Made by a program: the position numbers and the translations under genes. Source: Gammaproteobacteria bacterium (GTDB taxonomy: Bacteria > Pseudomonadota > Gammaproteobacteria > JABABF01). From it: a stretch of DNA of 64,000 nucleotides. Position 1 is the stretch's first letter; each line of letters starts with the position of its first letter. Shown here piece after piece: positions 1-63,465 of this stretch. The notes beneath the pieces were generated by a model, which was not told the DNA's origin, did not search any database, and worked only from the letters and a program-made list of their open reading frames with translations. The stretch spans positions 1,632,001 to 1,696,000 of the forward strand of contig OZ250153.1 in NCBI GenBank assembly GCA_965237805.1, read 5' to 3'.

Positions 1-494
1 TGTCGGCGACCCGCTGTTGGAAGAGACCGACATCGGCCCGCTGATCAGCCCTGCAGAGGTGGCACGCGTGGACGAATGGGTGCGCGAGGCGGTGGCCGGT
101 GGCGGCGAGCTGCTGTGTGGTGGCGAGCGGCTCACTGAGACCAGCTACGCCGCCACCGTGGTCTTGGACCCACCTGCCGACAGCCGGCTGGCCTGCGCTG
201 AGATCTTCGGCCCGGTCATCTCAGTGTTCAGCTGCGCCGACCGAGCAGAGGCCATCGCCCGTGCCAACAGCCTCGATGGCCTTCCAAGCGGCGGTCTTCG
301 GGCGCGTCGGCACCTTGCTGGACACGGCGCGGCGGCTGGATGCCTCTGCGGTGATGGTCAACGACCACACCGCCTTCCGCGTCGACTGGATGCCCTTTGC
401 CGGACGGCGCAGCTCTGGTCTCGGGGTCGGCGGCATCGGCCACACGATGGCCGATATGTCGCAGGAGAAGCTGCTGGTGATGCGCTTGGACTGA
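1..494 (+). pseudogene. Aldehyde dehydrogenase C-terminal part, runs off the window edge, frameshifted near 278
   Basis: ETDIGPLISP, EIFGPV and MPFAGRRSSGLG motifs are split over two frames (ORFs 17 and 99). A 2-bp deletion (gat--ggcc) relative to the copy at 3442 causes the shift. Could be a sequencing error. Confidence 0.75.
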
Positions 495-599
495 GACCCG
501 GCAGGGCGGTGGCGCATCCCCGTTCTCCCCATCCTCTAGCTACCGGATGGCTTCATCTTAGCACGGCCAGCTGATTGATCAGAGCTTCCTTAAGTGGTT

Positions 600-1460
600 T
601 TATCCGCTTGAATAATTAACTTTCACAAGTTTAGAGTCAATGTAATGGCCATGCGGATCAGAATCTAATTTATTCTCATCTTGCAGAAAATCAGCAGAAT
701 AGTTTTCGTTTGACACATAAATATGCGCCTTGTTCTCGCTACAATCAAAAGCTATATTTTTTGCGGTATTCTGGGTGATTGTGTTATAGCCTGCGTAATA
801 GTTGATATTTTCTGATGGAGCTTCTCCAATTACAATAATCTTAGGGTCGATGCTCTCTAACCAGTCAGTTGGGCTTTGCCGCTATCTCTTCCATGGTGTG
901 GGGCATGTCGGCTTTACCTGGAGCCTATTTTCCATGAAGTCTGATTCAAGATCTCCCATCCAGAGAAATTCCGCTCCATCTTTTAAACTATATTTAACTA
1001 CACATGAAATGTTATTAGGGCTTTCACCATCCTTTACTTTCCGAGCGATTTAAAATATTCATTTGATGTGATTGGCCATAGATGCCAATGCCAGAAGATC
1101 CTCTCCCATTTAGCTTGATTCAGCAGCATCTTTTGCAGCACTCTTTTTTGAATGATCTCTCAGTTCGCAATAGCGCTTGAAATCGACTGTCTCGGATTCC
1201 TTGGTGGCTGTTGTTGCGCAATAGAAATTTTTAATTTGCATTTTTTTATCCAACGCCACTAGATTTCTTATATGGCACCGTCTGGATGCGTTGAAATAAA
1301 GCGTTCAATTCCTTTGGCTGAAGATTGCCGTTCAATCTCGATTAGAATCCATTCTTTATTTTCATCTGACATGCAACGCAATCATAGTGAAATTATCACT
1401 TTCATGCTTGATATAGAACATGTCGCCATCACCTACGGCTAGTGACTTGACGGTGCTCAT
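600..1460 (-). pseudogene. MBL-fold (ComEC-like) metallo-hydrolase, multiply frameshifted
   Basis: Manual translation of the minus strand gives MSTVKSLAVGDGDMFYIKH, FISTHPD, SPNNISCVVKY, WMGDLE, PHHGR and IIVIGEAPS in shifting frames; low GC. Confidence 0.65.
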
Positions 1461-2391
1461 GAGGCTTTCTCCTGCCGCGCTATTTCGATTCGTTGCCATA
1501 GGAAGTCTGTTTATGATAAGCAGCAAGGAAAAGGATGGTAACCATTATTACAGACCAAAGGTGATGCTGGTTTCAATGAGAACGACAAAATCTAGTTGGC
1601 TGCGGGCCAAATTGTTTCGGTTTGTTCATAGATTCTGGCTATTAAGAGAACTATAAACAAAGCAACAAAAGTGCGGTACATATTATTCACCTCAGAGAGG
1701 AGTTCGATCTTTTCATCTTTTTTTGATGCTGAAATAAAATCCCCGTAATTTTCGTGGCTAGGTAATAGGAATTTTTTCGGCGAGTATTAGAGCCCCCACT
1801 CTACTGATGATTGCCAATAAAGTAGTAGAAGAATACACCGGTGAGGAGGCTGTCTTGTATAAACGAGCGTTGCAGGAAAGCCTCCGCCAAGATGCAAAGA
1901 CCGTCCCTGTCAACAGATAGTTGAAGATGTCGTACGATGAGAATTTATCAGATATTTCATTTGTTATCTATTTTCCTATGGTTTCCTGTTGGTGATTGTC
2001 TGCTACCCGGTCATTACCGTATACGGTTTGGCACTATACCATTATTTTAGGGAATTACATACTTGCTTGCCGCGCAAGTCAAGATCCGCATAGTCGTGGC
2101 TAGGCATGGTTTTATGGATTCGGCTCCAGCCTTGATTCGTAACAAAAAAAGCCGCTCTCGCTTGGCCTGTATCCTTATTGAGGATGAAAATGACATTTTT
2201 GTGGCCACCACGCATCATGCTATACGGCATTTTGTCAACCATGGCCACTAGCGAAGTAAGACTGCGTCACGACTGCCACAAACCGGCAATTGGGGCAGTT
2301 TGGTGGATTGGGACATGCTGAAGCCTTGGTTCGTCTAGGCCAAGCGATGGATGCACTCTTTCATGCGCTTGTTAGCGGGCCAGTCTCATCA

Positions 2392-3246
2392 TCAAAATGA
2401 ACCGCAGCGCGTAGCTATTGGTAAGAATCGATCTAGTGTTATCCGGAATTCTTGCCATGTCCTGCGCTTGCATCCAAGCCAAGACCTTCCCCAGGTGGAC
2501 TTGTAGGCACGAGTGAGCCAATAGTCGTGCCACGGTCGACGGCCTTCCTCATCTGCTGGATTTCGTTTCTCCAGTAGGCGAAGAAGTCCGGGCGGATTGA
2601 GCCTAGCGTAGATCACATCTTTGCTAATGGAGCTACCCACGCGGGGTTTGCGGTTTTCTACCCGGATTGCTGTGGCCAGCATTTCTTCCCACTCATCCAC
2701 GCGCAGCGGTATATATGTTCATAAAATTCTAATGGGAACTGGTGACCGAGCTTAATGTATTCATGAGCCAAGATGGCTTCAAATGTCTCGCGTAGTGTGC
2801 GTTTGCCGAGTCTTCATAGCCAATAGCCCATGGCAACTGGCCACACCCATTAGTGCCCTGCCCAGCATCTCTGCAGCGGCAATGCGCACACTGTGGCTTA
2901 GTCAGCGCCCCATCTTGCTTGGCGCTAAGCCAGACCTGTATCAGGTTGGGTAGCAAGAGGGCGTCAAATCCGCGTGCTCGGCCACCACGCCTCAATGTAT
3001 ACGGAATTGGGCGAAAAGTAGGAAGCGATTTATCCTTTGCTATATATGCCGACTTATGCTCTCGATTCGCATGGCAAAAAGTAGGAATCGGCTCCCAATG
3101 CGGATTGAGAGTGTGGTGCGCCCAATACGTCCTCAAGAGCGCCTGATTACCCGCGCCACAGCGCAGGCAATCTCCGCACATGCCGTCCCTAACCGCTTTG
3201 AATGATTGCGTCGGCCTTCATCTAATTTGCTTTTATTATCTTTCAT
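2392..3246 (-). pseudogene. P63C-domain protein, frameshifted
   Basis: Fragments RPIPYTLRRGGRARGFDALLLPNLIQVWLSAKQDGALT, FPLEFYEHIYR, DVIYARLNPPGLL..RNP..GRR and WQEFRITLDRFLP resemble P63C proteins. Confidence 0.6.
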
Positions 3247-3440
3247 GCCGCGGATAGGTGAGCCGCTTGCCAACCGCCGTAGCGAGGCGATGCGCTCCAT
3301 CGTGTGGCGCGCACATTGCCAGCTCACATGGCAGTGCTTCTGGCTCCAATTGTGGTAAACGCCATTGTAGCCGCGCTTCAGCACCGCCCAGCTCTCTATT
3401 CCATTGGTGCTGCCATGCCATTCACATACTCCCTGCCGAT
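3247..3440 (-). mobile_element. IS1595-family transposase C-terminal remnant
   Basis: STNGIES.WAVLKRGYNGVYHNWSQKHC, ARHTMERIASL and VGKRLTY motifs, broken by small deletions. Confidence 0.7.
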
Positions 3441-3441
3441 G

Positions 3442-3705
3442 GCTGCGCCGACCGAGCAGAGGCCATCGCCCGCGCCAACAGCCTCGATGTGGCCTTCCAA
3501 GCGCGGTTTTCGGGCGCGATATCGGCACCTTGCTGGACACGGCGCGGCGGCTAGACGGCGCGCCTTCCGCGTCGACTGGATGCCCTTTGCCGGACGGCGC
3601 AGCTCCGGTCTCGGGGTCGGCGGCATCGGCCACACGATGGCCGATATGTCGCAGGAGAAGCTGCTGGTGATGCGCTTGGACTGAGACCCGGCAGGGCGGT
3701 GGCGC
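3442..3705 (+). repeat. Near-identical direct copy of the ALDH 3' end plus ~20 bp past the stop (231-515)
   Basis: Direct alignment by eye; differs mainly by short deletions. Confidence 0.95.
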
Positions 3706-4439: not shown

Positions 4440-4510
4440 GGTAGTCTGCCCCTCATGTTGCAGCATCCGCAACGAGTCAGCTATGATGCATTCTAGCACT
4501 GGGGGCGGCC

Positions 4511-9139: not shown

Positions 9140-9720
9140 TTAATCCACCACTTCGTGCTTTGAGGGCAGATACCGTTGCAGTGGGTATTTATTCTCGGTG
9201 CATTTCATGCGCTGGATGGCGCTGCTATGCACTTTGGCACCGTCAGGGAGTTTGCGCCGTTTGGGTTGGAGTCTACGCCAGGGCAGCTTCTTCGCTTCGT
9301 CATGCGGCTTGTCATGGGAATCAGCTCGATAGGACTGTTGGCGCAATGCTTGGCGGTTGATTGTTAGACCACGTGCCAGTGCTTTGTGCGCCATCCACTG
9401 CAATGCGCAGTTCGAGAGCCCGCACTCAGCGTAGCCGCCGCCCACATCCGAATGTGATCCGGCAAACCACAGCTGTTCTATAGTCTGCTTCGGTGTTTGT
9501 CGGCTTTCATCCCACAGGGAGGGCTTAAAAGCCGTGCGCCTTTCGTCGATGGCCAGTGCATGGTAGGCAAAGGGGATATCAGGGTTCAGCCGGGCATCGT
9601 GAAAGCGGTGGCGCAGCCGCAGCGGCTCGCAGCGTCCCCCGGCTTGCGGCGCCAGCGTCGCGCCGCTGCGCGTGGGCGGACTATTTGGCCCACCGCCGCC
9701 GAGCGCATCGCCAGCCTGTT
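9140..9720 (-). pseudogene. Degenerate, internally deleted copy of the PEGA-lipoprotein 3' end fused to the DUF2235 C-terminal half
   Basis: PQAGGRCEPLRLR matches PQAGGRCEPLQLR of the 12482 gene. RFHD..YHALAIDERR..QLWFAGSHSDVGGGY..EVVD matches the 11468 gene. Confidence 0.85.
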
Positions 9721-9781: not shown

Positions 9782-11110
9782 ATGAAAGCTATTCCACAGG
9801 TGAGCGGTGCCCAGGGCGAAATGGGTCATTTCGCGGAGTTCTGTGCCAACCCGGCACTGTTTCTCAAACGTGCGCACAAGGAAAACGGCGAGCTGTGCGA
9901 GTTCGACTTGGCTGGCCTTAAAACGGTGCTGATGGTTTCTGCCCAAGCGCAGGAACTGGTTTTCCGGGCACCGGATGAGCAGCTCAATGCCGCCGCGGCC
10001 TACCAGCTGATGGTGCCGGTTTTTGGTGAGGGCATCCAGTACGGGGCACCTCCGGAGATCGAGCGCCAGCAGCTCAAAATGCAGGCACGGGGTCTGCGGC
10101 AGGACCGCATGAAAACCTATGCCGCGATCATCGCCCAGGAAGTGGAAGACTGGATCGGCAGCTGGGGAGATGAGGGCGAGCTCAATATTTATGAGGCCTT
10201 TACCCGGCTGACCCTGAAGACCTCCACTCACTGCCTGATGGGGGCGGATTTTCGCTCGACCATGACCGAAGAATTCGCCGAGCTCTACCACGACTTGGAA
10301 TCGGCGGTCAGTCCCGAGGCCCTGCGCGACCCCGACGACGCACAGGATGCTGTCTTTGTACAGCGCGATAAGGCGCGGGCTAGGCTCGGTGAACTGATCA
10401 GCGAGCGTGTCGCCCAGCGCCGGGCCAGTGGCGTAGTCCACGAGGATATGTTGCAGATCTATATTGATGCGACTTATCAGGATGGCCGCCCGCTCAGCGA
10501 CCATGAAATTACCGGCATGGTGATCTGGTTCATGTTTGCCGGTCATCACACCAGTGGCAATACCTCCAGCTGGACGGCGGTGGAGCTGGCCAAGAACCCA
10601 GCACTGGCCGCCGAGATCACCGCCGAGATCAAAGCGCTCTACCGCCAAACCAGTGAGCTGAGTCGCACCGCCCTCAAGACGATCCCCAAGCTGGAGGCGT
10701 TCATCATGGAAACCCTGCGCCTGCACCCGCCCTTGGTGACGCTGACCCGGCGGGTGATGCAGGACTTTGAGTACAAGGGCTATCCCATCACGGTTGGCAA
10801 GAATGTCATGGTCTCGCCCTATGTGGCGCACCGGCTACCGGAGCATTTCCCTGATCCGGAGCGCTTCGATCCCTCCCGCCAGGAGCCGGACAATGTGTTT
10901 GCGTTTATCCCCTTTGGCGGTGGCCACCGCAAATGTGTCGGCAATGCCTTTGCCATTCTGCAGGTCAAGGCCATCTTTTGTGCGCTGCTGCATCACTACC
11001 GCTTTGAGCTGGTGGATGCGCCGGAGACTTACACCGATGTCATGCCCTCGCTGATCCTGCGCCCCAGCGACCCCTGTCTACTGCGTTATCGGCGTCAAGA
11101 GGCCGCCTGA
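9782..11110 (+). CDS. cyp51: Cytochrome P450, CYP51 (sterol 14-alpha-demethylase) family
   Basis: AYQLMVPVFGEG, MFAGHHTS, ETLRLHPP and the heme motif PFGGGHRKCVG; resembles mycobacterial and Methylococcus CYP51. Confidence 0.85.
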   Translation: MKAIPQVSGAQGEMGHFAEFCANPALFLKRAHKENGELCEFDLAGLKTVLMVSAQAQELVFRAPDEQLNAAAAYQLMVPVFGEGIQYGAPPEIERQQLKMQARGLRQDRMKTYAAIIAQEVEDWIGSWGDEGELNIYEAFTRLTLKTSTHCLMGADFRSTMTEEFAELYHDLESAVSPEALRDPDDAQDAVFVQRDKARARLGELISERVAQRRASGVVHEDMLQIYIDATYQDGRPLSDHEITGMVIWFMFAGHHTSGNTSSWTAVELAKNPALAAEITAEIKALYRQTSELSRTALKTIPKLEAFIMETLRLHPPLVTLTRRVMQDFEYKGYPITVGKNVMVSPYVAHRLPEHFPDPERFDPSRQEPDNVFAFIPFGGGHRKCVGNAFAILQVKAIFCALLHHYRFELVDAPETYTDVMPSLILRPSDPCLLRYRRQEAA

Positions 11111-11113
11111 GCT

Positions 11114-11386
11114 ATGGGCTGTTACCGCATCAAGCTCGATATGCAGCTGTGCCAAGGGCACGGCGAGTGCGCCGAAGAGGCACCGGAGGTCTTCTCGGTG
11201 GATTATGAGCGGGGCGGCTACCCCAAGGTCAGGGTGTCGCAGGCCATGCCCGCTGAGCGTTTTCGTGAACAGGTCGAGGCCGCCGCCAAGTATTGCCCGA
11301 ACCGGGTCATACAGGTGATTGACCTAGACGATGAGCAGCAGCAATGCACCGATCAGGTCGATCAATCCGGCACCGGCCCTGGTTGA
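11114..11386 (+). CDS. 3Fe-4S ferredoxin, P450 partner
   Basis: CQGHGEC...CP motif; lies directly after CYP51, as Rv0763c does. Confidence 0.85.
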   Translation: MGCYRIKLDMQLCQGHGECAEEAPEVFSVDYERGGYPKVRVSQAMPAERFREQVEAAAKYCPNRVIQVIDLDDEQQQCTDQVDQSGTGPG

Positions 11387-11467: not shown

Positions 11468-12436
11468 TTAGTCCACCACCTCGTAGTCCGCGGGCAGCTG
11501 GGGGCGGTAGTGATGCTCGCTCCGCTCCATGCGCTCGCTGACGCTGCGGTGCAACTTGGCACTCTCCGGGATGCGCCGCCGTCGGCTGCCGCGCGCACGC
11601 CACAGGGCTTTGCGCGACTCGTCGTGCTGCTCACAGTGCGGGTTGGCACGATGTTGTCGCATCAATGTCCGGCGATCCAATCGCACCCCGCAGGCCAGCG
11701 CTTTGCGCGCCATCCATTGCAGCGCCCCGTCGGCCAGCCCACAGGCTTCGTAGCCGCCTCCCACATCCGAATGCGCCCCCGGGAACCACAGCTGCTCGAT
11801 AGTCTGTGCGGGCGTTTTGCCGCTCTCATCCCATAGGCAGGGCGGAAAGTCCTTGCGTTTTTCATCGATCGACACGGCGTGATAGCCGAAGCACACTGCG
11901 GGGTTCAGCGCGTGGTCGTGGAAGCGGTCGCCAGCATTTGCCCGCAGCGATGCCACGGTATCCCAGACGCCGATGAAATACACCGGGCAGGGGCGCGCAA
12001 ACACCGTCTTGAAGCTGGCCGCGATCGCCGCGTTGTCGGCGGTGTTGTAGAGCTTGCCAGCGTACTCCACCATATTGTCCAGATCGTCTCGCAACAGCCC
12101 TACCTTGTGCAACATGCCAGCCAGTGAGCGCGCGGTGAACGCGCCGCGAGAAAAGCCGAAAAGATAGATGCGATCGTCCGCCCGATAGTGCCGCATCAAA
12201 TAGCGGTAGGCATCTTGCACATTTTTTTGCACACCGGCACCGCTGGCTTTGTCCCATGCGCCGCGCAGATTTTGCGTGCTGTATTCCCAGCCCCCGGTGC
12301 CCACGCCCGGATCGTAAAAAGCTAATTGATTGGCATCTTTTTGTAGCAACGAGTACAGCTTGACCACATTGCTGTTGATCGCGCCGTACTCATTGCCGGT
12401 GCCGTCACAACATAGAACGATATTGCGCACGGTCAC
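11468..12436 (-). CDS. DUF2235 alpha/beta hydrolase (Tle1 phospholipase-like)
   Basis: CCDGTGN, YDPGVG, GFSRGA, GVWDTV, HAVSIDE and WFPGAHSDVGGGY motifs. Confidence 0.85.
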   Translation of the reverse strand: MTVRNIVLCCDGTGNEYGAINSNVVKLYSLLQKDANQLAFYDPGVGTGGWEYSTQNLRGAWDKASGAGVQKNVQDAYRYLMRHYRADDRIYLFGFSRGAFTARSLAGMLHKVGLLRDDLDNMVEYAGKLYNTADNAAIAASFKTVFARPCPVYFIGVWDTVASLRANAGDRFHDHALNPAVCFGYHAVSIDEKRKDFPPCLWDESGKTPAQTIEQLWFPGAHSDVGGGYEACGLADGALQWMARKALACGVRLDRRTLMRQHRANPHCEQHDESRKALWRARGSRRRRIPESAKLHRSVSERMERSEHHYRPQLPADYEVVD

Positions 12437-18079: not shown

Positions 18080-18160
18080 TGGCCATCCGCCGCGCTGTGG
18101 GGCGCGTTGCCAGCCGCTGCCGCCTCGTTGTTGCGGTGGCCTAGCGGGGGGAGCGGGGCG

Positions 18161-19237
18161 ATGGATTTCCAATTCAGCGAAGAGCAGCGCATGTTCGAGC
18201 GCAGCCTGCGCGACTTCCTCGCCGCCGAGCTGTCGACCGAGCGCATCCGGGAGCTGTGGGACAGCGCTAGCGGTCGCTGTGACAAACTGTGGCGCGGCCT
18301 CAGCGAACTCGGTGTGATCGGTGCCTTGGTGCCAGAGGCCGACGGCGGCCTCGGCTTGGACGAGCGCGATTTCGTGTTGATGGCGGAGGCCTGCGGCCAC
18401 GCCGCCCTGCCGGAGCCGCTGGTGGACAGCGCCTTGCTCGCGGCTCCGCTGTTGGCGGCGGCGGGTGGTGAGGCGGCGCAGCGCTGGTTGCCGCCGCTGC
18501 TCAGCGGCGAGGCGCGCGTGGCTGTCGCCACCCCGCTGGATTTGTTGGTGCCAGACGCCGATGTCGCCGCTGCCGTGCTGTTGGCTGGCGGCTGCGCTGG
18601 CGACGACGATGGCGAGCTGCGGCTACTGGCGCTGCCGCCCGCCGCTGGCCTGCGTCGCCAGCACAGTGTGGATCCATCGCGCCGCCTCTTCAGCCGCGCT
18701 CCGCTGGGCGGCGGCGAGTTGCTGGCAATGGGAGACTCGGCGCGGCAGCTGTGGGCGCAAGCCTTGAATCGCGGTGCGCTGGGCGCGGCGGCACAGCAGT
18801 TGGGTGCGGCGGCGCGGATCTTGGAATATGCGGTGGCCTACACCTCCGAGCGCAAGCAGTTCGGGCGCGCAATCGGCTCGTTTCAAGCGGTGCGCAACCA
18901 GTTGGCCGATGTCGCGGTGGCCTTGGAGTTCGCCCGCCCGGTGGTCTATCGCGCCGCCGACAGCTTGGCGCGCGGCGTGGCGACGGCCGCGCGCGATGTC
19001 TCACACGCTTGGCTGGCTGCTGGCGAGGCGGCGCGCATGGCGGCGCGGCACGGCATCCAGTCGCACGGGGCGATCGGCTACACCTGGGAGCTGGACTTGC
19101 AGATCTGGCTCAAGCGCATCTGGGTCACGGATGCGCTGTGGGGCGGTCGCGCATGGCACAGTGCGCGACTCGAGGCGGCGGTATTCGCGCCCGATGCCAT
19201 GCTCGGCGCGGGCCACACTTTTGATGACGGGGGGTGA
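18161..19237 (+). CDS. fadE32: Acyl-CoA dehydrogenase beta subunit, FadE32-like
   Basis: SVDPSRRLF, RKQFGRAIGSFQA and HGAIGYTWELDL; partner of the upstream ACAD. Confidence 0.75.
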   Translation: MDFQFSEEQRMFERSLRDFLAAELSTERIRELWDSASGRCDKLWRGLSELGVIGALVPEADGGLGLDERDFVLMAEACGHAALPEPLVDSALLAAPLLAAAGGEAAQRWLPPLLSGEARVAVATPLDLLVPDADVAAAVLLAGGCAGDDDGELRLLALPPAAGLRRQHSVDPSRRLFSRAPLGGGELLAMGDSARQLWAQALNRGALGAAAQQLGAAARILEYAVAYTSERKQFGRAIGSFQAVRNQLADVAVALEFARPVVYRAADSLARGVATAARDVSHAWLAAGEAARMAARHGIQSHGAIGYTWELDLQIWLKRIWVTDALWGGRAWHSARLEAAVFAPDAMLGAGHTFDDGG

Positions 19238-19562
19238 TGCCAGCAGCTGGTGTGAATTCTGTCTCCTTTTGATGCTACGGAAACATGATTCAGCATTCTG
19301 CCAATCCACTTCGCCATCAGGCATCAGCGAGAGCAAAATGCAGTATTCTTTGAACCTGCCCTTGCTATGGACAGCCTCAGGACAAGGGGCGTGGTGGCGA
19401 CCTACTTTCGTTGCAGCGTGGGCGCACCGCCTCTATCGGCCACCCAGCCCATGCAATGGTATCGCGTCACATCGTACGGGCACTAGAACGGATAGCCTGT
19501 CGGCATCACCCCTACGGGCTGAACAGGACTATCACCCTACGCACGGGATGGTCGGTAGTGGC

Positions 19563-20243
19563 TCAGTTTAATTTGTCGGCCAAAGCCGCGATGTCCTCTA
19601 GGCTCCAAAGGCGCTTTGACACCCCGGCTTCCATCGCCGGGCTGTACCGCAGGGTGCCGTGGATGCGGGCGAAGTTGTAGTGCATGTAGTGCAGGCTGAT
19701 GGCGTGGGCGTGGTTCTCAAGCTTCTTTGAGAAGGCGTTAGTCAGCCGAGCGAAGCGCCGCATGGACATGCGCATCGTGAGGTTCTGGCGCTCTACATAA
19801 GAGGTTGAGACATCCGCCCGCCGTGGACGGCCTGTAACAGCCCGCTTCCTAGCGCCCACGCACTGCGCGGGGCTGTAGCGCCGCTCTGCAGCCTTGTCCG
19901 GTGCTGCTCCATACAACTTGACTAGCTGGGCGTAGTCGATGTCACTCCCAAAGGCTCCGGCCACGGCATCTAGGTAGGCTCCGTGGCCGTCAGTTGTCAG
20001 CTGCACACGCCCCGACAGCCGCTCGGCGAGGTCGTCCATGAAGCGGTTAGCGGCATTTGCGTTGCGCGGCCCAACATGCCAGCAGGGCACCAGCTTGGTG
20101 TCAGCGCAGATGGCTACCCATGTCCAGACATCGCCCAGCCCAAACTCGCCGCGCCTGTCTGGCGGCAGGTTTCGCTGCTTGGCATAGACGAAGCTCCAAA
20201 TCTCGTCGCACTCCACGCGCTTGCAAGGCAATTCCCGCAGGCG
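19563..20243 (-). pseudogene. IS1-family transposase lacking its N-terminal DNA-binding region
   Basis: [16 protein letters not shown] and [27 protein letters not shown] present; the frame starts abruptly at RLRELPCK with a stop just upstream. Confidence 0.8.
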
Positions 20244-20310
20244 CTATACTCAAGTGTGGTATAGTGATTGACCCGTCTTCTTCGATGCGCCCACACAGCC
20301 TCAACCAGTG

Positions 20311-21390
20311 ATGAAATACGCCATATGGAACAACAAGGGAGGGGTGGGCAAGACTTTCCTTACTTTTGCGCTGGCCACCTTAACTGCAGAACGATTCAAT
20401 GCAAAAAAGAGGGGGAGCCATCACGCCCGCCAAGTGGTGGTCATAGATATGTGCCCCCAAGCAAATGTGAGTGAAATACTTCTAGGCGGCAATGGCTCTG
20501 GATCAGATAAGCTATCAGAACTCATAGAAAAAGATAAGACGGTCGCCGCTTATTTTCGTCAACGGATACAGGTAAAGCCTTACCAGCCCATGAATAATGA
20601 AAAGAGTTATGCTATCCGTGTCAGCGAACATAACCAACACATTCCCGAGAACTTACATCTAATCTCTGGAGACCCTGAGTTGGAATTACAAATACCAACC
20701 ATCAATTCTCTAGCTGGGCAGGCTATGCCAGAGAATGCTTGGATTGCCGTGCACCAGTGGGTTACTAATTTGATAGAGGGATGCCAAGGACATCTCGGCC
20801 AAGACACGGTCTTCTTCATCGATTGCAACCCCAGTTTCTCTGCCTATACTGAATTGGCACTGGTTGCAGCAGAACGCTTAATAGTCCCCTGCAGTCCAGA
20901 TGGCTCGTCAGCTAGGGCAATATTTAATGTGGCGCGGCTAGTCTATGGTCATAACCTGCAAACAAAGTATAAACAACTGCGATTTAGCGCAAAAATGGAC
21001 GAATCTAATGCCATCCCTCCCCGAATGCACCTGTTCGTAATGAACAGAGCTACGATGTATGCTGGCGATATGGCTAGAGCATTTGATGCGATGGCACAAG
21101 AGTTAAATGAAAAAGTGCAACAATTACATAGTGGCTCTGGCGGTATAGAGATGTTTTCAACACAGGACGGAAACACCTTGTTTGAGAATCTGGATCATAT
21201 GCCTGATTCTCATAGTGTAGGCATAGTAATGGCACATACAGGTAGACCGCTTAGCGCGATCCACCCCGGGGCTATTAAGTATAACATCAGTAGCGCGCAT
21301 AATATCAATATAACTGTTGGGGCTGAGCAAAAAGCACGCTATCTTGAGGCTTTAGAGAGAATAGTAGACCGCCTTGATCTTGGATTTTAA
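20311..21390 (+). CDS. Orphan ParA-family ATPase (IS passenger)
   Basis: NNKGGVGKT, IDMCPQAN and FIDCNPSF motifs; low GC. Confidence 0.85.
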   Translation: MKYAIWNNKGGVGKTFLTFALATLTAERFNAKKRGSHHARQVVVIDMCPQANVSEILLGGNGSGSDKLSELIEKDKTVAAYFRQRIQVKPYQPMNNEKSYAIRVSEHNQHIPENLHLISGDPELELQIPTINSLAGQAMPENAWIAVHQWVTNLIEGCQGHLGQDTVFFIDCNPSFSAYTELALVAAERLIVPCSPDGSSARAIFNVARLVYGHNLQTKYKQLRFSAKMDESNAIPPRMHLFVMNRATMYAGDMARAFDAMAQELNEKVQQLHSGSGGIEMFSTQDGNTLFENLDHMPDSHSVGIVMAHTGRPLSAIHPGAIKYNISSAHNINITVGAEQKARYLEALERIVDRLDLGF

Positions 21391-21650
21391 CTCTTCGACC
21401 ACCTCGCTTTCACGGCCTGCCGCGCTATCTCGTTGCGCCGCTCTGGCGACATCTTCTCCGCTCTAGCCCTGCCGCCCTTGAGGCCGCCCAGCCTGCCACG
21501 CTCCACAGCCTGAGGGTTCTTGGGCGGCTCAGGCGGCGGCGCATACTCGCCCACGGACTGCTCCATGACCTGCTTGGCGCGCAGGTTGAGGTCGCGGGGG
21601 CGCTTGGGCTTGCCTTTAGGGGGCGTGTGTTCGGGACGGTCTTCGCTCAT
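21387..21650 (-). CDS. Small basic IS-associated protein
   Basis: KRPRDLN...KNPQAVERGRLGGLKGGRARAEKMSPERRNEIARQAVKARW, a motif I recall next to ISMhu11-like transposases. Confidence 0.7.
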   Translation of the reverse strand: MSEDRPEHTPPKGKPKRPRDLNLRAKQVMEQSVGEYAPPPEPPKNPQAVERGRLGGLKGGRARAEKMSPERRNEIARQAVKARWSKS

Positions 21651-21716
21651 GTCGGCGATTGTCGCCTAGCGAGCCAGCGCGTCAACCCCAAACTGAGCCA
21701 CTACCGGATGGTCGTG

Positions 21717-21962
21717 CTACTTGTTCCCAACAAAGAGATTGTTTAGGTAGCATGCATGGTGTAGGATTTCTTTTGCCATAGCGTCTGTCACATCATCTAC
21801 ACAACGATTTTGGTCGCCTTTAGGAATCAGTTCTCTAGCTCTAACTAGACTGTCGTATACAACTACACCAGTAACTAGAGCTTGGGCGCTTGCTAGAGCT
21901 GGACCTTTTTGTGGATGACGGTCCCACAAACCTAGATGTTTATACCCTTCATCACTCATCAT
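21717..21962 (-). CDS. Hypothetical protein
   Basis: 81-aa ORF preceded by an AGGAGG RBS; low GC. Confidence 0.45.
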   Translation of the reverse strand: MMSDEGYKHLGLWDRHPQKGPALASAQALVTGVVVYDSLVRARELIPKGDQNRCVDDVTDAMAKEILHHACYLNNLFVGNK

Positions 21963-22150
21963 TAATTCCCTCCTAGGAACCATTATTTATCAGTATATAA
22001 CAGACACCAGAGCAGACGGAGGGTCTAGCTCCTGGCGCTCACGTCGATAAGGGAATGCGAAGCGCTTATCTCCACCGCTCGGCTAATGGTTACTGGCTGC
22101 GCAGGGAACTGATACATACACCCCCATAGCACTCAATATCTCCCGCCTAC

Positions 22151-22204
22151 TTCTCCCCCGACGCTGCGCTCGGCGCAGGGTATACTTTTGATGATGAGGA
22201 GTGA
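22151..22204 (+). repeat. Degenerate copy of the fadE32 3' end
   Basis: FSPDAALGAGYTFDDEE* versus FAPDAMLGAGHTFDDGG* (19184-19237); same length to the stop. Confidence 0.8.
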
Positions 22205-22299
22205 TCTCGGTCGCTGACGCGAATACAGCTTGCATTTTTCTTTATTGGTTGGCAGCCCGCTGCTCAATCGATGCAGAATCTGAATTGTAGAAGAACTTA

Positions 22300-22904
22300 G
22301 TGATGGAACCATCACTAATAAACTGCACTTAAAGATGTCGGTATCTTCAGAAAAAACAAAATATCAAGCGTGCCATGAAATGATTCATATCTGGACGGCG
22401 CTCTGTTGTTGCCCAATTCGGATTATCCTTTAGCAGTTGGACATAGAGCTGATTGAGTTGACTAGTCGCTCGCATGTCCAAGCTGCTCTCACGGATTTGT
22501 TTGACGGTGCTGATTCCGGCGAGAGGCAAGAAAAAACCCAAATAATCAGGTAATTCGGCATATTTGCAAGCGATGGATTCACCCCTAACAAGATCTTCGG
22601 AGAGCAAGATCTCTCCATCAGTTGCTAAAATAAATTTTGCGTTTGCAGTGGTGGTTTTGACGTTATCCCGCAAAGCGATAAGTGTCGCATCGACAGCGCC
22701 TGGATCACACATCGCCATATGGATATTATTGCGCTGTAAAACGCCACCGGGAACATCTGACGTATTAGAGATGCCACGTTGTAGTTTGTTGATGGTGGTT
22801 GATGTGTTCCCAAATGCCGCAAGAAATTGATAAGGGAATACCTGCATATCAAATGGCTGACCAGCTAATTCTGACACTGCCTGTTCAATTTCAACGGCAT
22901 TCAA
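22300..22904 (-). pseudogene. MmeI/YeeA-like type IIG restriction-modification protein, N-terminal fragment
   Basis: NAVEIEQAVSELA..FPYQFLAAFG..GVLQRNNIH..FFLPLAGI..NHFMARLIFCFF, then a frameshift into EDTDIF and truncation. Confidence 0.7.
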
Positions 22905-22944
22905 AACTTGGTCCTCTCGCTATTCACAGTAAACAGTCATCTGG

Positions 22945-24975: not shown

Positions 24976-25025
24976 GCGTGAACCCATCCATCAGGATTCC
25001 GGCGATGCGTTATTCTAAGGAGATA

Positions 25026-26177
25026 ATGAGTGAAGCCTACATTGTCGATGCCCTGCGCAGCCCCACCGGTCGCCGCAACGGCAGCCTCGCCAGCTGGCAT
25101 GGTGCCGATCTCGGTGCCGCGGTGTTGCGCGCCTTGGTCGATCGCAATGCGGTGCCAGCCGAGGACTACGACGATGTGGTCTTCGGTTGCGTCGATGCCA
25201 TCGGCCCACTGGCTGGCGACATCGCCCGCACCGCATGGCTCGCCGCCGGTTTGCCGGATGCCGTGCCCGGGGTGACGGTGGATCGCCAGTGCGGTTCTTC
25301 GCAGCAGGCGCTGCACTTTGCCGCCCAGGGGATCATGAGCGGCACCCAAGATGTGGTGGCGGTCGGCGGCGTACAGACCATGAACGCGATCCCGATCTCA
25401 GCGGCCATGCTGGCGGGGCGCGAATACGGCTTTGAGGATCCTTTTTCCGGCTCCGAGGGTTGGGTGGCGCGCTACGGCACAGAGACAGTGTCGCAATTCC
25501 ACGCCGCCGAGCGCATTGCCGAGAAATGGGATTTGAGCCGCGAAGAGCTGGAGCGCTACGCCCTGCAGAGCCACCAGCGGGCGGTGGCCGCCATCAAAGC
25601 CGGTTATTTCGACAGCCAGCTGTTGCCGGTAGGGGGTTTGGAGCATGACGAGACACCGCGTGCATCCACGACGCCAGAGAAGATGGCCAGCTTGGAGCCG
25701 CTGCTCGAAGGTGGTCGTCTGACGGCTGCCACCTCCAGCCAGACCTGCGATGCCTCGGCGGCTCTGCTGATGGTGTCCGAGAGTGCTATGAAGCGTTATC
25801 AGTTGCGCCCACGGGCACGCATTCACCATCTGAGCGTGCGCGGTGACGATCCGATCTGGATGCTGACAGCACCGATCCCGGCCACCCGCTACGCGATGGA
25901 AAAGAGCGGCATGTCCTTGGCGGACATCGATCTGGTCGAGATCAACGAGGCCTTCGCCTCAGTGCCACTGGCTTGGTTAGCAGAGACCGGCTATCCCGAG
26001 GAGCAGACCAATGTCAACGGCGGTGCCATCGCCTTGGGCCATCCCCTGGGGGCCACCGGAGCCCGCCTGATGACCGCCCTGCTATGCGAGCTGGAGCGGC
26101 GCGGTGGCCGCTACGGCCTGCAGACCATGTGCGAGGGCGGTGGGCAGGCGAATGTGACGATTATTGAGCGGGTTTGA
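25026..26177 (+). CDS. fadA6: Acetyl-CoA C-acyltransferase (thiolase), FadA6-like
   Basis: [22 protein letters not shown] and MCEGGG; close to Rv3556c. Confidence 0.85.
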
Positions 26178-26363
26178 TGTCTCAGCATTGTATTATTTTG
26201 ACCTTATGTATTTAGGGAGCCTAAAATCAGGTGCCTATAACACCGCTAAGGATACCAGAGAACCTGCCGAACCGAATGATCAGATTTCTGCAGACACGGT
26301 TAAATATGATATAGTCAGGAACTATGCCAACAAACCAGTAGATTTGGCTCGTAGCGTGGCAAC

Positions 26364-28649: not shown

Positions 28650-28871
28650 TCGAATCAACGGAGAATAATATAGAGCCAATAATTACAATTTTATATAGAG
28701 GATATGAACACCGGATTCGACGTGTCATTGTTTTGAGCATGATCATGTGGAAATCTTCTGTTCGTTGTTGATAAGATAACTTGGCAATGCCAGTGACAAG
28801 TGATATTGATTCCATCTCTCGCGTTTCGAACTGCTGCGTCTTCTTGTTCCCTACCCCACTTTCTCTTTACT

Positions 28872-29083
28872 ACTGGCCTAGCTAGCCGAAACCGACTACC
28901 CCAAAGAGCAGACCAACGTCAACGGCGGAGCCGTCGCCCTCGGCCACTCCCTCGGCACCACCGGTGCCCGCCTGATGACCCCTTGCTGTGCGAGTTGGAA
29001 CGGGCGGGGGGAGCTACGGCCTGCAGATCAGGTGCGAGGGCGGCAGGCAGGCAAATGTGACGATTATTGAGCGGCTGGGGTAG
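28872..29083 (+). pseudogene. Degenerate copy of the fadA6 3' end
   Basis: [24 protein letters not shown]...ANVTIIER aligns to 25967-26177 with substitutions and indels. Confidence 0.9.
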
Positions 29084-57229: not shown

Positions 57230-59185
57230 GTGGTGACGCAAGCGGCAGCTGTGCCGATCGCTGCAGTCAACGACTTCGTTATCAAATTCGCGACGGTCAA
57301 CGGTAGCGGATCGTCGCGCACAAACAGCTTATTCGCCTCGGCGTTATTTCGCATGGGGCTCAGCGTCGCGCCCAAGAATATATTCCCATCTAATATCCAA
57401 GGCCTGCCGACTTGGTTTGAGGTGCGCGTCAGCGATCGCGGTTTTATCGGACGGCGCGGCGGGGTGGATTTGGCGGTGGCGCTCAATCCGCAGAGCGCGG
57501 CCAAGGATTTGGCCGAGCTGTCGTCCGGCGGATATTTTCTCTACGATTCGACGCGGCCGCTGGATCCCGCATTGCATCGTGACGACATCAATTATCTGCC
57601 GGTGCCGTTGACGCGTCTCTGCGCCAAAGAGTTCTTGCAGGCGCGCCAGCGGGAGCTGTTGCGCAATATGTGCTATGTCGGGGTGCTCGCCGAGCTGTTG
57701 GGCATCGAGACGACCGTGTTGCACCAATTGCTCGAGGAGCAGTTCGGACACAAGCCCAAACTGGTGGCATTGAACAAGCGCGCACTGGAACTCAGCCGCG
57801 ACTACGCCCGCGAGCATCAGCTGTCTATTGGTCTGCGTGTCGAGCGCCGCGAGCGAGATTTGCCCGATGCCATTTTGCTCAATGGCAACGCCGCCTTAGC
57901 GTTGGGAGCTATCTACGCCGGAGCGACGGTGGCGGCTTGGTATCCGATCACGCCATCCACTTCGGTGGTGGAGGCTTTTGAGCGCTATGCCAAACGTTTT
58001 CGCCACACAGAGGACGGTGCTGCCAACTATGCCGTGGTGCAAGCCGAGGACGAGTTGGCTGCCATCGGCATGGTCATTGGTGCTGGCTGGAACGGTGCTC
58101 GCGCTTTTACCGCCACCAGTGGCCCCGGCATTTCGCTGATGGCGGAATTTTTGGGCTTGGCCTATTTCGCCGAGCTGCCAGTGGTGCTCTACGATGTGCA
58201 GCGTGTTGGTCCTTCTACCGGGCTGCCGACCCGCACCCAGCAATCCGATGTGCTGGCAGCTGCCTACGCCTCCCACGGCGACACCCGCCATGTGCTGCTA
58301 TTCCCCGCCAGTGTCGCGGAGTGTTTTGAGTTGAGTGCGCAGGCCTTCGATTTGGCAGAGCAGCTGCAGACGCCGATTATCGTCATGACCGATTTGGACA
58401 CTGGCATGAACGATCATATTTCGCCACCGTTGCGCTGGACTGAGGGGCGGCGCTACGATCGCGGGCGGGTACTGGATGCCGAGGACTTGGATCGGCGCAC
58501 GCAGCGCTATGGACGCTACTTAGACGAGGAGGGTGATGGCATCTGCGCGCGCACCTTGCCCGGCACCCATGCCGATAAAGGTGCTTTTTTCACCCGCGGT
58601 ACCGCGCGCGATCCCTATGCGATCTACAGCGAGGAGGGCGGGCACTACGAGGCCAATATGCAACGTCTGCTACGGAAATGGCGCACGGCGGCTGGCTTGG
58701 TTCCAGAGCCAGTGCTCGAACACGGCGACGGTAGCGCCGAGTTGGGGGTGCTCTGTTACGGTAGTAGTGCGGATGCGATGCTGGAGGCGGCGCAACGCCT
58801 CGGCGCAGAGCGCGGCTTGGCGATGGATGTGTTGCGCGTGCGAGCCTTTCCGTTCAGCGATTCGGTGCGGGAGTTTTGCGCAGCTCACCGGCAGCTATTC
58901 ATTGTCGAACAGAATCGTGATGCGCAGTTGCGCACCTTGCTGATACAGGAATGCGGCAGTGCTCTGATCGGCTTGCAGGCGTTGTGCCACTACGATGGCA
59001 CGCCGATCACCGCCGATTTCATCGTCGCGGGCATCAGCGCTGGCATTGAGCAGTTGGCTGATGGTGCCGCGATTGAGCATATCGGTGCTGGATCGCAAGC
59101 CAAATCGAAACCCGCCACGCAACGTGCTGGCAAGGGGGGCAAAAAGAGCCGTGCGAGGCGAGTCCGCCCGGCGGCGGTATCATGA
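57230..59185 (+). CDS. korA: 2-oxoacid:acceptor oxidoreductase alpha subunit (start approximate)
   Basis: NIFPSNIQG, WYPITPS, QAEDE, ATSGPG and QRVGPSTGLPT. Confidence 0.85.
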   Translation: MVTQAAAVPIAAVNDFVIKFATVNGSGSSRTNSLFASALFRMGLSVAPKNIFPSNIQGLPTWFEVRVSDRGFIGRRGGVDLAVALNPQSAAKDLAELSSGGYFLYDSTRPLDPALHRDDINYLPVPLTRLCAKEFLQARQRELLRNMCYVGVLAELLGIETTVLHQLLEEQFGHKPKLVALNKRALELSRDYAREHQLSIGLRVERRERDLPDAILLNGNAALALGAIYAGATVAAWYPITPSTSVVEAFERYAKRFRHTEDGAANYAVVQAEDELAAIGMVIGAGWNGARAFTATSGPGISLMAEFLGLAYFAELPVVLYDVQRVGPSTGLPTRTQQSDVLAAAYASHGDTRHVLLFPASVAECFELSAQAFDLAEQLQTPIIVMTDLDTGMNDHISPPLRWTEGRRYDRGRVLDAEDLDRRTQRYGRYLDEEGDGICARTLPGTHADKGAFFTRGTARDPYAIYSEEGGHYEANMQRLLRKWRTAAGLVPEPVLEHGDGSAELGVLCYGSSADAMLEAAQRLGAERGLAMDVLRVRAFPFSDSVREFCAAHRQLFIVEQNRDAQLRTLLIQECGSALIGLQALCHYDGTPITADFIVAGISAGIEQLADGAAIEHIGAGSQAKSKPATQRAGKGGKKSRARRVRPAAVS

Positions 59186-60234
59186 CTTATATCGCGCCGG
59201 GCTTCCGCCATCCCGACCAGGCGCTCAATGAGATCGGGCTGAGTCGCCGCGATTACGAGGGGGCTCTGTCGACGCTGTGTGCCGGTTGTGGTCACGATTC
59301 GGTGAGCGCGGCGATCGTGCAGGCCAGTTTCGAGTTGTCATTGCCACCGCACCGTTTCGCCAAGATATCTGGCATCGGTTGTTCCTCCAAAACACCGACC
59401 TATTTCTTGGGTCGCTCGCACGGTTTCAACGCCGTGCATGGGCGCATGCCGTCCATCGCCAGCGGCGCACATTTGGCCAATGGCGAATTGCACTATGTGG
59501 CCATATCCGGCGATGGCGACACCGCTTCCATCGGCATCGGCCAATTCGTACATGTGATCCGCCGCAATGTGAATATGCTTTATCTATTGGAGAACAACGG
59601 CTGCTACGGATTGACCAAGGGTCAAGATTCAGCCACTACCGACATCGGCTCCAAAGCCAAGGCAGGGCACGAGGGTTTTCTGCCGCCGGTGGATCTGTGC
59701 GCGATGGCTCTGCAGCTCGGTGCTGGCTTTGTAGCGCGCAGTTTTTCTGGCGACAAGCAGCAGTTGGTGCCGCTGATCAAAGCGGCGATCAAGTATCGTG
59801 GCTTTGCCTTCATCGATGTGATTTCTCCTTGTGTGACTTTCAACAACAACGACGAGTCGACCAAGAGCTACAGCCATGCGCGCCGCGCCATCCACGCAAC
59901 CAATACGATCGACTATGTGCCTGAGCGCACTGAGATCAGTACTGAATACGCCCCGGGAGAGCGCGTGGCGGTTCCCCTGCACGATGGCGGCGAGATCGTG
60001 TTGCGCAAGGCGGAATCCGATTTTCAGCCCCGCGATGGGATGGCTGCGCTGAACGCGATGCACAAGGCCGCCACCAGCGGCGAGATATTGACCGGCTTGC
60101 TCTACTTAGATCCAGACAAGCCAGACCTGCATACGATGCTCAAGACCTCTACCCGCCATTTGGCCGCGCTGGGAGAAGATGTGCTATGTCCGGGCGTAGC
60201 GGCGCTGGAGCAGATCAACGAAGAGTGCCGCTGA
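59182..60234 (+). CDS. korB: 2-oxoacid:ferredoxin oxidoreductase beta subunit
   Basis: CAGCG, SGIGCS, the TPP motif GDGD..N and SPCVTFN. Confidence 0.88.
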   Translation: MTYIAPGFRHPDQALNEIGLSRRDYEGALSTLCAGCGHDSVSAAIVQASFELSLPPHRFAKISGIGCSSKTPTYFLGRSHGFNAVHGRMPSIASGAHLANGELHYVAISGDGDTASIGIGQFVHVIRRNVNMLYLLENNGCYGLTKGQDSATTDIGSKAKAGHEGFLPPVDLCAMALQLGAGFVARSFSGDKQQLVPLIKAAIKYRGFAFIDVISPCVTFNNNDESTKSYSHARRAIHATNTIDYVPERTEISTEYAPGERVAVPLHDGGEIVLRKAESDFQPRDGMAALNAMHKAATSGEILTGLLYLDPDKPDLHTMLKTSTRHLAALGEDVLCPGVAALEQINEECR

Positions 60235-61724: not shown

Positions 61725-61788
61725 CGCTTTGATCCTGATTTTTGAGCAATTGATATTAATACGCAATAAGCGTCCTGATCCCTTGCTT

Positions 61789-62652: not shown

Positions 62653-62683
62653 CGCTGCACTCCCCCGATTTAAGTTGGCTGAT

Positions 62684-62878
62684 TTAGCCGCCTTGTTGGT
62701 CGCTTGCGCTTTGCAAAAGATGTCTTCCCAATACGAGACAGATAACGACAGTCACCAAATCGGCCACATGCCACCCCAGAGTCGGCACGAAGCCAAACAT
62801 GCCCGCCGAAAACAGTAGCAGGATCACAATACCCCAGCCAATACTGAGTTTTCCGAGCTGATTGCTGTTGAGATTCAT
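62684..62878 (-). CDS. Small two-TM hypothetical protein
   Basis: 64-aa ORF with a GGAG RBS and two hydrophobic segments. Confidence 0.5.
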   Translation of the reverse strand: MNLNSNQLGKLSIGWGIVILLLFSAGMFGFVPTLGWHVADLVTVVICLVLGRHLLQSASDQQGG

Positions 62879-62954
62879 GATGGTCTCCGCTGGGATCGCA
62901 ATATTGCACACTGCAGTTGCAGTGCGTTATCAGTATATCACGCGATCCGCCCGC

Positions 62955-63032
62955 TTATTGCCATTCCAGCGGGAATGCACTCGGCTCAGTGATGTGTGGT
63001 GGGTCGTTTTCCACTGATGCCGCGCATGCGGC
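62955..63032 (-). repeat. Degenerate copy of the SDR 3' end
   Basis: ENDPPHITEPSAFPLE versus ENDPPHIKAPSEFPME (61789-61860). Confidence 0.8.
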
Positions 63033-63054
63033 CAGTACCCCAAGGAGGTGATAC

Positions 63055-63465
63055 AGCACTAAGGTTTTGCCTTCATCGATGTTATTTCTCCCTGCGTGAC
63101 CTTCAACAACAACGAGTAATCGACCAAGAGTGACAGCCATGCCCCGTCGCTCAATCCACACCGCCAATGCGGTGGACTATGTACACGAGCGCGCCGAGCT
63201 CAGCGCCGACTACGCGCCGGACGAGAGCGTGGCGGTAGCGCTACACAACGGTGGCGAGATCGTCTTGCCTAAGGTGGCAATAGCATTCCAGCCCGGCGAC
63301 GAGATGGCAGCACTAACAGCAATGCACCGCGCTACTGCCGCCAGCGAAATCCTGACGAGGCTACTTTAGCTAGAGACCTCAACCCGCCATCTGGCCGCAC
63401 TGGGTGAGGAAGAACTGTGCCTAGCGGTGGAACTGCTGGAGCAGATTAGCGAGGAGTGCCGCTGA
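63055..63465 (+). pseudogene. Degenerate copy of the korB 3' end
   Basis: GFAFIDVISPCVTFNNNE*...DYVHERAELSADYAP..LHNGGEIVL...EECR* aligns to ~59795-60234, with stops and a deletion. Confidence 0.9.

Follow-up and report, generated by a model that had tools for sequence, protein, structure and literature searches.

Partial gene copies in a 64-kb window of a gammaproteobacterial genome may reflect three ordinary processes rather than one new gene-loading mechanism

We analyzed a stretch of 64,000 nucleotides (hereafter the window) from contig OZ250153.1 of a Gammaproteobacteria bacterium (assembly GCA_965237805.1), in which several genes lie next to a partial copy of a gene 3' end. The genome is a single contig of 1,725,584 bp with 61.6% GC, and the window comprises its bases 1,632,001-1,696,000, i.e., 3.7% of the total. 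Read from the left end, the window opens within an aldehyde dehydrogenase (ALDH) gene, of which it has the 3' part; next come a DedA/VTT gene and the genes for 23S and 5S rRNA. An accessory block follows, made up of a sulfotransferase-like gene, DUF2235 genes, CYP51 and ferredoxin, and then a steroid-type beta-oxidation operon (13090-26177, ipd/fadE/fadA6-like) encoding a CoA transferase, a short-chain dehydrogenase/reductase (SDR), NMO, two acyl-CoA dehydrogenases (ACADs) and a FadA6-like thiolase. The rest contains tRNA-Ala(CGC), the isc operon, many core genes, korA and korB, and finally tetratricopeptide repeat (TPR) and SDR genes. Four genomes (G001-G004) were used for comparison, of which G001, a sister species in the same genus, is ~76-85% identical to the window genome; at the insertion loci the identity is ~80-85%, so the test of whether an insert is absent is one between species.

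A first-pass annotation had listed six tail copies in the window and had read them as the products of a single route by which accessory DNA is stacked behind core genes. All six copies exist. Self-BLASTN of the whole window (E<=1e-5) recovered five of the six pairs, and the sixth, an ACAD pair, was recovered at the protein level. In five cases the copy lies downstream in the gene's own orientation, and the measured distances of 2.3-3.3 kb agree with the 2-3 kb that had been claimed. The tail copies are thus real and far beyond chance, yet the six cases are unlike one another, and we lean towards the view that three ordinary processes, and not one new gene-loading mechanism, lie behind them.

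The ALDH locus, at the left end of the window, has the following features.

2..494, + strand: 3' part of the ALDH gene (Pfam Aldedh, 5.9e-23), with the stop codon at 492-494 and the gene start upstream of the window
231..515, + strand: repeat copy 1, made up of 264 nt at the end of the gene and 21 nt beyond its stop
516..3441, no strand: insert of low GC (40% at 1001-2000), with no intact gene and a weak P63C fragment
3329..3435, - strand: fragment of an IS1595-family transposase gene, abutting repeat copy 2
3442..3705, + strand: repeat copy 2 (the remnant), next to which stands DedA/VTT (3714-4562, - strand), as in G001

The two copies (231-515 vs. 3442-3705) are 87.6% identical over 290 columns in self-BLASTN; the flanks of the repeat are 98-99% identical between the copies, and its middle is full of indels. 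In G001 the order is ALDH-DedA-23S and the insert is absent, with ~250 nt there vs. 3.4 kb in the window, giving an insert of 3.2 kb relative to G001. Both copies carry the same lineage-specific substitutions relative to G001, and therefore both are native. The insert has no second copy anywhere in the genome, and its IS1595 fragment has matches of 76-77% inside PF12762 open reading frames (ORFs) of G003 and G001.

Contigs assembled from short reads of two public runs (X1 and X2) of one sample were compared with this locus. By three-frame translation, the ALDH gene of the window is frameshifted near position 278; at full depth, the run contigs have an additional TG behind 276 and ATA behind 306, and the frameshift is absent from them. 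A run contig of 3,099 nt spans 486-3323, with 274 gap positions relative to the window over 2.8 kb. From the insert side, a run contig enters repeat copy 1 by 30 nt, and another joins the insertion sequence (IS) fragment, via 20 other letters, to ALDH position 223. The depth of the insert contig is 7.9 vs. 30-33 for the flanks in X1, and 5-9 vs. 92-112 in X2, where the contigs leave parts of the insert uncovered and, as throughout, each contig gives a single depth figure. We read the ALDH insert as present in the sample, probably carried by only a minority, or at least only a part, of the population, and poorly polished in the assembly. More generally, apparent pseudogenes in low-depth parts of this genome need care, and such parts may be poorly polished.

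A second insert follows the thiolase gene at the end of the beta-oxidation operon.

24963..26177, + strand: FadA6-like thiolase gene, with the repeat copy at 25967-26171
26172..28871, + strand: insert of low GC, with an AAA_13 / PDC-S06 candidate defence ATPase at 26364-28649 (PADLOC, 1.8e-60)
28872..29083, + strand: thiolase tail remnant with two 1-nt deletions, its ending of native type and its flank as in the G001 live gene
29158-30345, - strand: DUF6161/AbiZ-like gene (AbiZ-like, 7.7e-13)
30412-30487, - strand: tRNA-Ala(CGC), which in G003 lies 300 nt after the thiolase gene

Here the copies (25967-26171 vs. 28872-29074) are 83% identical in self-BLASTN. Since the repeat stops at 26171, the live gene takes its two final codons (GTT TGA) from the low-GC DNA of the insert. 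The remnant, by contrast, shares both its 'LG-stop' ending and its downstream flank with the live gene of G001, and is therefore the original native tail. Its private changes, 13 derived vs. 1 ancestral, together with the two 1-nt deletions, point to decay and not to a foreign origin. Sliding identity to G001 reveals no step at the repeat boundary, and the four-taxon site patterns of the tails, with 2, 3, and 2 informative sites for the three possible groupings, leave the tree unresolved.

The relatives differ at this position. G003 and G002 have one thiolase tail each, and the gap between thiolase and tRNA-Ala, 300 nt in G003, is occupied in the window by the PDC-S06-type ATPase, the remnant, and the AbiZ-like gene. 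G001 has a thiolase tail copy of its own, 93.5% identical to its live tail over 356 nt and located 190 nt downstream, and its thiolase/tRNA-Ala slot holds DNA different from that of the window. Judged from these comparisons, the slot is a lineage-specific hotspot. Among the ORFs of the G001 slot, beside the thiolase remnant and tRNA-Ala, are two giant ones, of >1,467 aa (L011, G001:C66 1-4401) and 1,201 aa (L022, G001:C82 3343-6948), for which Pfam returned no family. As a background control, 80 distant metagenomic thiolase loci were inspected; a tail-only thiolase fragment was found in 0 of the 80, the closest match was 73% identical at the amino acid level, and no uninserted or alternative haplotype was present among them.

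The third insert lies within the same operon, behind the second of its two ACAD genes (ACAD2).

18107..19257, + strand: ACAD2, IpdE2-like acyl-CoA dehydrogenase (gene 18107-19237 and 20 nt past its stop), contiguous with G001 to 19257
19258..24783, no strand: insertion relative to G001, 5,526 nt
19563-20231, - strand: IS1-like transposase, in the insertion
20308-21390: ParA-like ATPase, in the insertion
22136..22224, + strand: ACAD2 tail remnant, the last ~20 codons and the stop, with a further ~20 nt whose end, GCGAAT, is as in the live copy
22347-22904, - strand: MmeI_N / type IIG restriction-enzyme fragment (defence-profile match, 3.2e-22)
22945-24987, - strand: GH2 gene, listed with the insertion

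The short ACAD pair (18107-19237 vs. 22136-22204) was missed by BLASTN. With TBLASTN, 13 of 20 residues are identical and the stop codon is aligned (E=1.5e-4 in a 5.7-kb search space), and the nucleotide local alignment reaches a score of 45, compared with 18.1+-2.1 and a maximum of 26 in 200 shuffles. In G001, the two ACAD genes and thiolase are contiguous, with no break at the window's 19257/24784, and the junction alignment places the start of the insertion 20 nt after the ACAD2 stop. Because 19258-24783 is a clean insertion relative to G001, the live ACAD2 tail is contiguous with ancestral sequence, and again no identity step relative to G001 is seen at the repeat boundary. The same '...GAAT' point precedes three different sequences. 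The remnant lies inside the 5.5-kb insert and is followed by the type IIG fragment and the GH2 gene, not by thiolase. Both of these positions, thiolase/tRNA-Ala and ACAD2/thiolase, appear on sequence comparison to be variable slots whose content differs between close relatives.

A search for recombinase domains covered 84 of the 123 ORF fragments of the three inserts (40/40 in insert 1, 30/37 in insert 2, and 14/46 in insert 3), and the other fragments lie within the ParA-like, AAA_13, and DUF6161 genes or on the strand opposite to them, each of these genes having been scanned whole. None of the 84 fragments matched a recombinase. Genome-wide, tyrosine recombinases (PF00589) gave two matches, one at 327 kb and the other at 1,484 kb, neither of them near the window, and serine recombinases (PF00239) gave none, so the statement that these copies come with no integrase holds. 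Fragments of IS1595 and IS1-like transposases do occur inside two of the three inserts and may have played a role in the insertion. RecA and ComEC are encoded in the genome. The ALDH, ACAD2, and thiolase loci thus have in common an insertion relative to the relatives, two copies of native origin, and an insert free of recombinases. The first-pass annotation had described integrase-free insertion at a gene end with a displaced tail, and for these three loci the description is apt; it does not fit the remaining copies, of korB, an SDR gene, and DUF2235.

The korB and SDR copies belong together, at the right end of the window and beyond it.

59182..60234, + strand: korB, 2-oxoacid:ferredoxin oxidoreductase beta, repeated from ~59779/59800 to the stop
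60246-61835, - strand: TPR gene, in the same order in G001
61789-62625, - strand: SDR1, in the same order in G001
62961..64000, no strand: start of a tandem array, with an SDR2-tail copy (62961-63032), a korB-tail pseudogene (63042-63465), and a TPR gene (63499-65763) running beyond the window
65918-68091 in window numbering: second array unit, 91% identical to the first, then intact SDR2 at 68387-69256

In self-BLASTN, korB (59800-60063 and 60143-60234) matches 63063-63327 and 63374-63465 at 76%, and the SDR tail at 61791-61859 matches 62963-63032 at 84%. The SDR pair had been noted as a gene and its own displaced tail; the pair exists, but the copy in the window is closer to the tail of SDR2, beyond the window (94%), than to that of SDR1 (84%). 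Across the window end, the order is korB, TPR, SDR1, two copies of a unit, and intact SDR2. The unit is 2,957 nt long and is repeated head-to-tail; besides a TPR gene, it contains pieces of the SDR2 tail (72 nt) and of the korB tail (425 nt). The stretches 62961-65137 and 65918-68091 are 91% identical over 2,180 nt, the junction of SDR tail and korB tail included. The two korB remnants have their stops, their frameshift, and an 11-aa deletion in common, and thus the korB piece had become a pseudogene before the unit was duplicated. The two SDR2-tail and two korB-tail copies form an array that arose from the copying of one unit, and the kor locus is a tandem amplification of a repeat-bounded unit.

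The labels given to the cargo genes of the window were correct throughout, namely CYP51 with a separate ferredoxin gene, an IS1-like transposase, an AAA_13 ATPase, and TPR with SDR. The last pair had, in addition, been taken for an accessory insert. Since korB-TPR-SDR stands in the same order in G001, these two genes are not cargo of foreign origin; in G002, a pair of SDRs occurs in tandem. The identity of korB to G001 drops from ~83% to ~75% near the repeat boundary, an ambiguous signal, as G002 and G003 likewise show no conservation of this tail, which varies widely across the family.

The DUF2235 copies, in the accessory block, enclose the CYP51-ferredoxin cassette.

9143..9607, - strand: C-terminal half of a DUF2235/Tle1-like paralog, equivalent to aa 171-322 (TBLASTN, 55% identity, E 4e-52)
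9782..11386, + strand: CYP51 and ferredoxin cassette (CYP51 9782-11110, ferredoxin 11114-11386; Pfam; PDB CYP51 structures, 3.9e-119)
11468..12436, - strand: full-length DUF2235 (T6SS_Tle1-like_cat) gene (Pfam, 1.7e-75)

At the nucleotide level, 9375-9617 and 11694-11935 are 72% identical in self-BLASTN. The remnant covers 152 of 322 residues in one frame, with no stops and 55% amino acid identity, and its ratio of nonsynonymous to synonymous divergence (dN/dS) is 0.21 at a dS of 1.45. In a simulation of neutral substitution to the same divergence, the probability of finding no stop is 0.016. An open, stop-free frame with a dN/dS of 0.21 indicates a gene that was functional for long and truncated recently, and not the decayed tail of its neighbor. 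What had been listed as a dead copy of the gene's own tail is thus half of a diverged paralog. With the full-length gene as query, neither DUF2235 gene was found in G001-G004, and although the family is effector-like, no immunity array was seen at the locus. The closest relatives of the CYP51 are in metagenome-assembled genomes of Halioglobus/Halieaceae (73-76% amino acid identity); ferredoxin adjoins CYP51 in 32 of 53 loci, and DUF2235 is nearby in 0 of the 53. The cassette stands beside the steroid-type operon described above.

Taken together, we propose that three processes may have shaped these loci. At ALDH, ACAD2, and thiolase, foreign and mostly low-GC DNA of ~2.7-2.9 kb would have come to lie between direct native copies of 75-285 bp, the upstream copy keeping the gene whole and the downstream copy being left to decay. 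The route would most likely be RecA-dependent integration with homology on one side, either as a Campbell-type single crossover of a small circle that carries a piece of the gene end, or as homology-facilitated illegitimate recombination in a competent cell that had taken up linear DNA. The position at gene ends might result from selection, because only duplications that reach the gene end would leave the gene intact and hence survive. At korB/SDR, the flanking repeats would have allowed unequal crossing-over and so the amplification in tandem of the 2,957-nt unit. At DUF2235, an anciently diverged paralog may have lost its 5' half where the CYP51-ferredoxin cassette now sits, and the cassette itself may have been acquired from a Halieaceae-like source.

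Several observations weigh against this explanation or complicate it. Neither junction microhomology, nor a circular form, nor a donor sequence was seen at the three insertion loci, and the route proposed for them is accordingly inferred. At ALDH, the right junction of the run contig differs from that of the window (3434, then 20 other letters, then position 223), and the many gap positions relative to the run contig mean that the window is there either poorly polished or a different haplotype; the depth contrast is a hint of heterogeneity, contig depth being weak evidence of frequency. The ACAD2 remnant is followed by further foreign genes, which requires at least two events or a composite insert. 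At the kor locus, an intact SDR1 stands between the first and second units, which implies an extra unequal crossover or an insertion beyond a simple tandem triplication. Finally, the genome survey reported below rests on crude ORF calls.

The insertions at ALDH, ACAD2, and thiolase belong to a class that has already been described. Insertion with long target duplication is reportedly a subject of work by Nobusato and colleagues from 2000. In a later account, of which, as of the other three papers compared here, excerpts are the basis of our statements, duplications of 46-423 bp surround restriction-modification (RM) genes and no mobility genes accompany them (Furuta, Abe and Kobayashi, 2010; PMC2853133). 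According to the same excerpts, the repeats often touch a gene 3' end, the species are mostly competent, amplification proceeds via the repeats, and the inserts often differ in GC from the host (PMC2853133). The loci of the window resemble these cases in their direct repeats of >30 bp and variable length (285 bp at ALDH, 205 bp at thiolase, and ~75-90 bp at ACAD2), in the amplified kor unit, in the partly defence-related cargo, and in the absence of the insert from a relative whose single target aligns with both repeats. Unlike the RM-centered cases, the cargo here consists of the PDC-S06 ATPase, the AbiZ-like gene, IS/ParA debris, and unidentified DNA (PMC2853133); no RM system was found as cargo, the only trace of one being the dead MmeI_N/type IIG fragment. 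Another difference is that the published cases come from within-species comparison, whereas the comparison genome here is only ~76-85% identical (PMC2853133).

Other known systems are similar in part. In an E. coli conjugation experiment, single crossover of a circular molecule duplicated 109-950 bp of homologous sequence, with 56 of 60 clones PCR-positive and 14 sequenced (PMC3240628). As in that Campbell-type integration, a segment is duplicated on both sides of the insert and the repeats of the window are in the same size range; the published case is a constructed plasmid in the laboratory, however, and the ParA-like gene of the ACAD2 insert is the only hint of a plasmid in the window (PMC3240628). 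For the displacement of rhs C-terminal ends, a homology-based mechanism was proposed (Jackson et al., 2009; PMC2935791), and homology-facilitated illegitimate recombination was invoked for type VI secretion system (T6SS) effector-immunity arrays (Kirchberger et al., 2017; PMC5361080). In both, incoming DNA brings a new end and pushes the old 3' end downstream, with no integrase; the orphaned 3' pieces pile up, and circular intermediates or homology-facilitated illegitimate recombination have been proposed (PMC2935791; PMC5361080). Those systems have a conserved core, variable toxic tips, paired immunity genes, and selection on the new tip (PMC2935791; PMC5361080), whereas the window genes are metabolic and their 'new' tail is the same native sequence, so that duplication restores the gene and does not change it. 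Also unlike rhs, the live 3' ends at ALDH, ACAD2, and thiolase show no discordance that would point to lateral acquisition. ALDH, ACAD2, thiolase, and DUF2235 have a single remnant each. A search of the literature on genomic islands, partial duplication, and single crossover turned up nothing pertinent among the matches listed.

Genomic islands that lack a recombinase are common and their entry is poorly understood, and the mechanism of long target duplication is unsettled and has been described mainly for RM genes. It is therefore of some interest that several such scars lie within 64 kb of an uncultured gammaproteobacterium with a small genome. The apparent ALDH heterogeneity in one sample, together with the independent event in the sister species at thiolase, makes this a usable natural test case for long-read population data. 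At the same time, caution is needed with partial copies beside intact genes: their origins differ, and at first glance a truncated old paralog resembles the junction of a tandem amplification.

A stronger reading of the same scars would be that integrase-free insertion with long target duplication is the main, still active way in which defence and accessory genes are loaded behind housekeeping genes in this organism. In such a process, units of ~3 kb (the repeat periods are 3211, 2953, 2905, and 2957 nt) would enter by one-sided recombination at gene ends and then be amplified, and snapshots of loading under way would be seen in the ALDH insert, with its low depth, and in the thiolase tail copy that G001 has independently. 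We regard this as doubtful.

The broader proposal, that one general homology-driven single-crossover route acted at all six loci, importing the live tail and displacing the old one, is in our judgment improbable. The architecture at ALDH, ACAD2, and thiolase (K-A-X-A'), the lack of a recombinase in the inserts, and the presence of RecA all suit it, and the kor array, if read from SDR2, also runs gene-cargo-tail-cargo-tail. One of its predictions, that the remnant with its downstream neighbor represents the ancestral locus, was borne out at ALDH and, for the flank, at thiolase, but failed at ACAD2, and korB was uninformative. The other, by which the live tail and the 5' part of its gene should be discordant, fared worse: no discordance appeared wherever it was looked for, given the shared substitutions at ALDH and the smooth identity at thiolase and ACAD2. 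Moreover, TPR and SDR are common to G001 and hence not foreign, the kor unit is a head-to-tail repeat, i.e., the tandem duplication that had been named beforehand as the outcome speaking against the proposal, and the DUF2235 copies, at 72% nucleotide identity, are too diverged for a homologous crossover, with a remnant under purifying selection. Nor would such a route be new, as a homology-driven one was already proposed for rhs, a precedent in its favor (PMC2935791), and the type of scar has been described (PMC2853133), as far as the excerpts go.

We also surveyed the genome crudely, searching by TBLASTN within 10 kb of each of 1,333 ORFs, with thresholds that the ALDH, ACAD, and SDR cases do not reach. 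Of the 58 fragment clusters recovered, 41 were internal pieces, 5 were heads, and 12 were tails, 8 of the latter lying downstream and 4 upstream. The window accounts for four of these 8 downstream tails, and since it is such a small part of the genome, the scar is concentrated there and not spread genome-wide. With 8 downstream tail clusters among 1,333 ORFs, and upstream tails and heads beside them, as tandem duplications predict, the survey speaks against a single route. Outside the window, at genome bases 1,113,642-1,116,377, a 103-nt tail copy (86%) lies 2.6 kb downstream of a 456-aa ORF. The idea that a regular ~3-kb spacing betrays a size-limited vehicle was dropped; other local repeat pairs are 1.3-7.1 kb apart.

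Elements that restore the 3' end of a gene upon integration are well known. The inserts might accordingly be decayed site-specific elements, aimed at a gene 3' end or a tRNA, whose integrase was later lost. Like integrase-driven islands, the inserts of the window lie by tRNA-Ala and gene ends, have foreign GC and direct repeats, and carry IS and ParA-like debris, and the thiolase island abuts the 3' side of tRNA-Ala. Yet no recombinase fragment is left among the 84 ORF fragments scanned, and a search of 19000-30405 for a copy of the tRNA-Ala 3' end gave none (best match 14 nt, E 0.93). Where a short att core, identical at both ends, would be expected, there are repeats of considerable and variable length (75-285 bp), native in both copies, and the same slots in G001 are occupied by different sequences. 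We therefore rate a decayed integrase-bearing element as quite unlikely.

The same low rating applies to the possibility that all copies stem from tandem duplication, of a whole gene or of a segment, after which the inner copy was deleted and replaced. Tandem duplication is demonstrated by the kor array, and the tandem SDRs of G002 are in keeping with it, as is a further case at genome bases 1,323,806-1,329,955, where a 3.1-kb tandem duplication comes with an exact tail copy of 47 nt. The sequences that follow copy 1 and copy 2 at ALDH, ACAD2, and thiolase, however, are unrelated, the inserts at ALDH and ACAD2 are absent from G001, and extra, precisely placed deletions would be required. Least probable of all is an assembly artifact in which mixed-strain haplotypes were threaded in series to give false repeats, as the low depth of the ALDH insert contig, its 274 gap positions, and the missing frameshift in the run contigs might suggest, because copies that are 72-88% identical and have changes of their own do not represent strain-level variation, run contigs pass from the insert into repeat copy 1 and from the IS fragment into the ALDH tail, and the independent assembly of G001 also has a thiolase tail copy.

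Three further features were noted in and around the window. The 23S and 5S rRNA genes at 4850-8007 have no 16S gene nearby. The spacer between rlmN (36871-37989) and ispG/gcpE (38376-39473) is taken up, at 37957-38379, by a 26-nt unit repeated 16.3 times in tandem (95% matches); the period is not a multiple of three and the array has no evident function. Some 13-34 kb before the window, at genome bases 1,598,100-1,618,900, lies a stretch of ~20 kb of repetitive coding sequence with internal repeats 71-90% identical, which probably encodes one or more giant repeat proteins.

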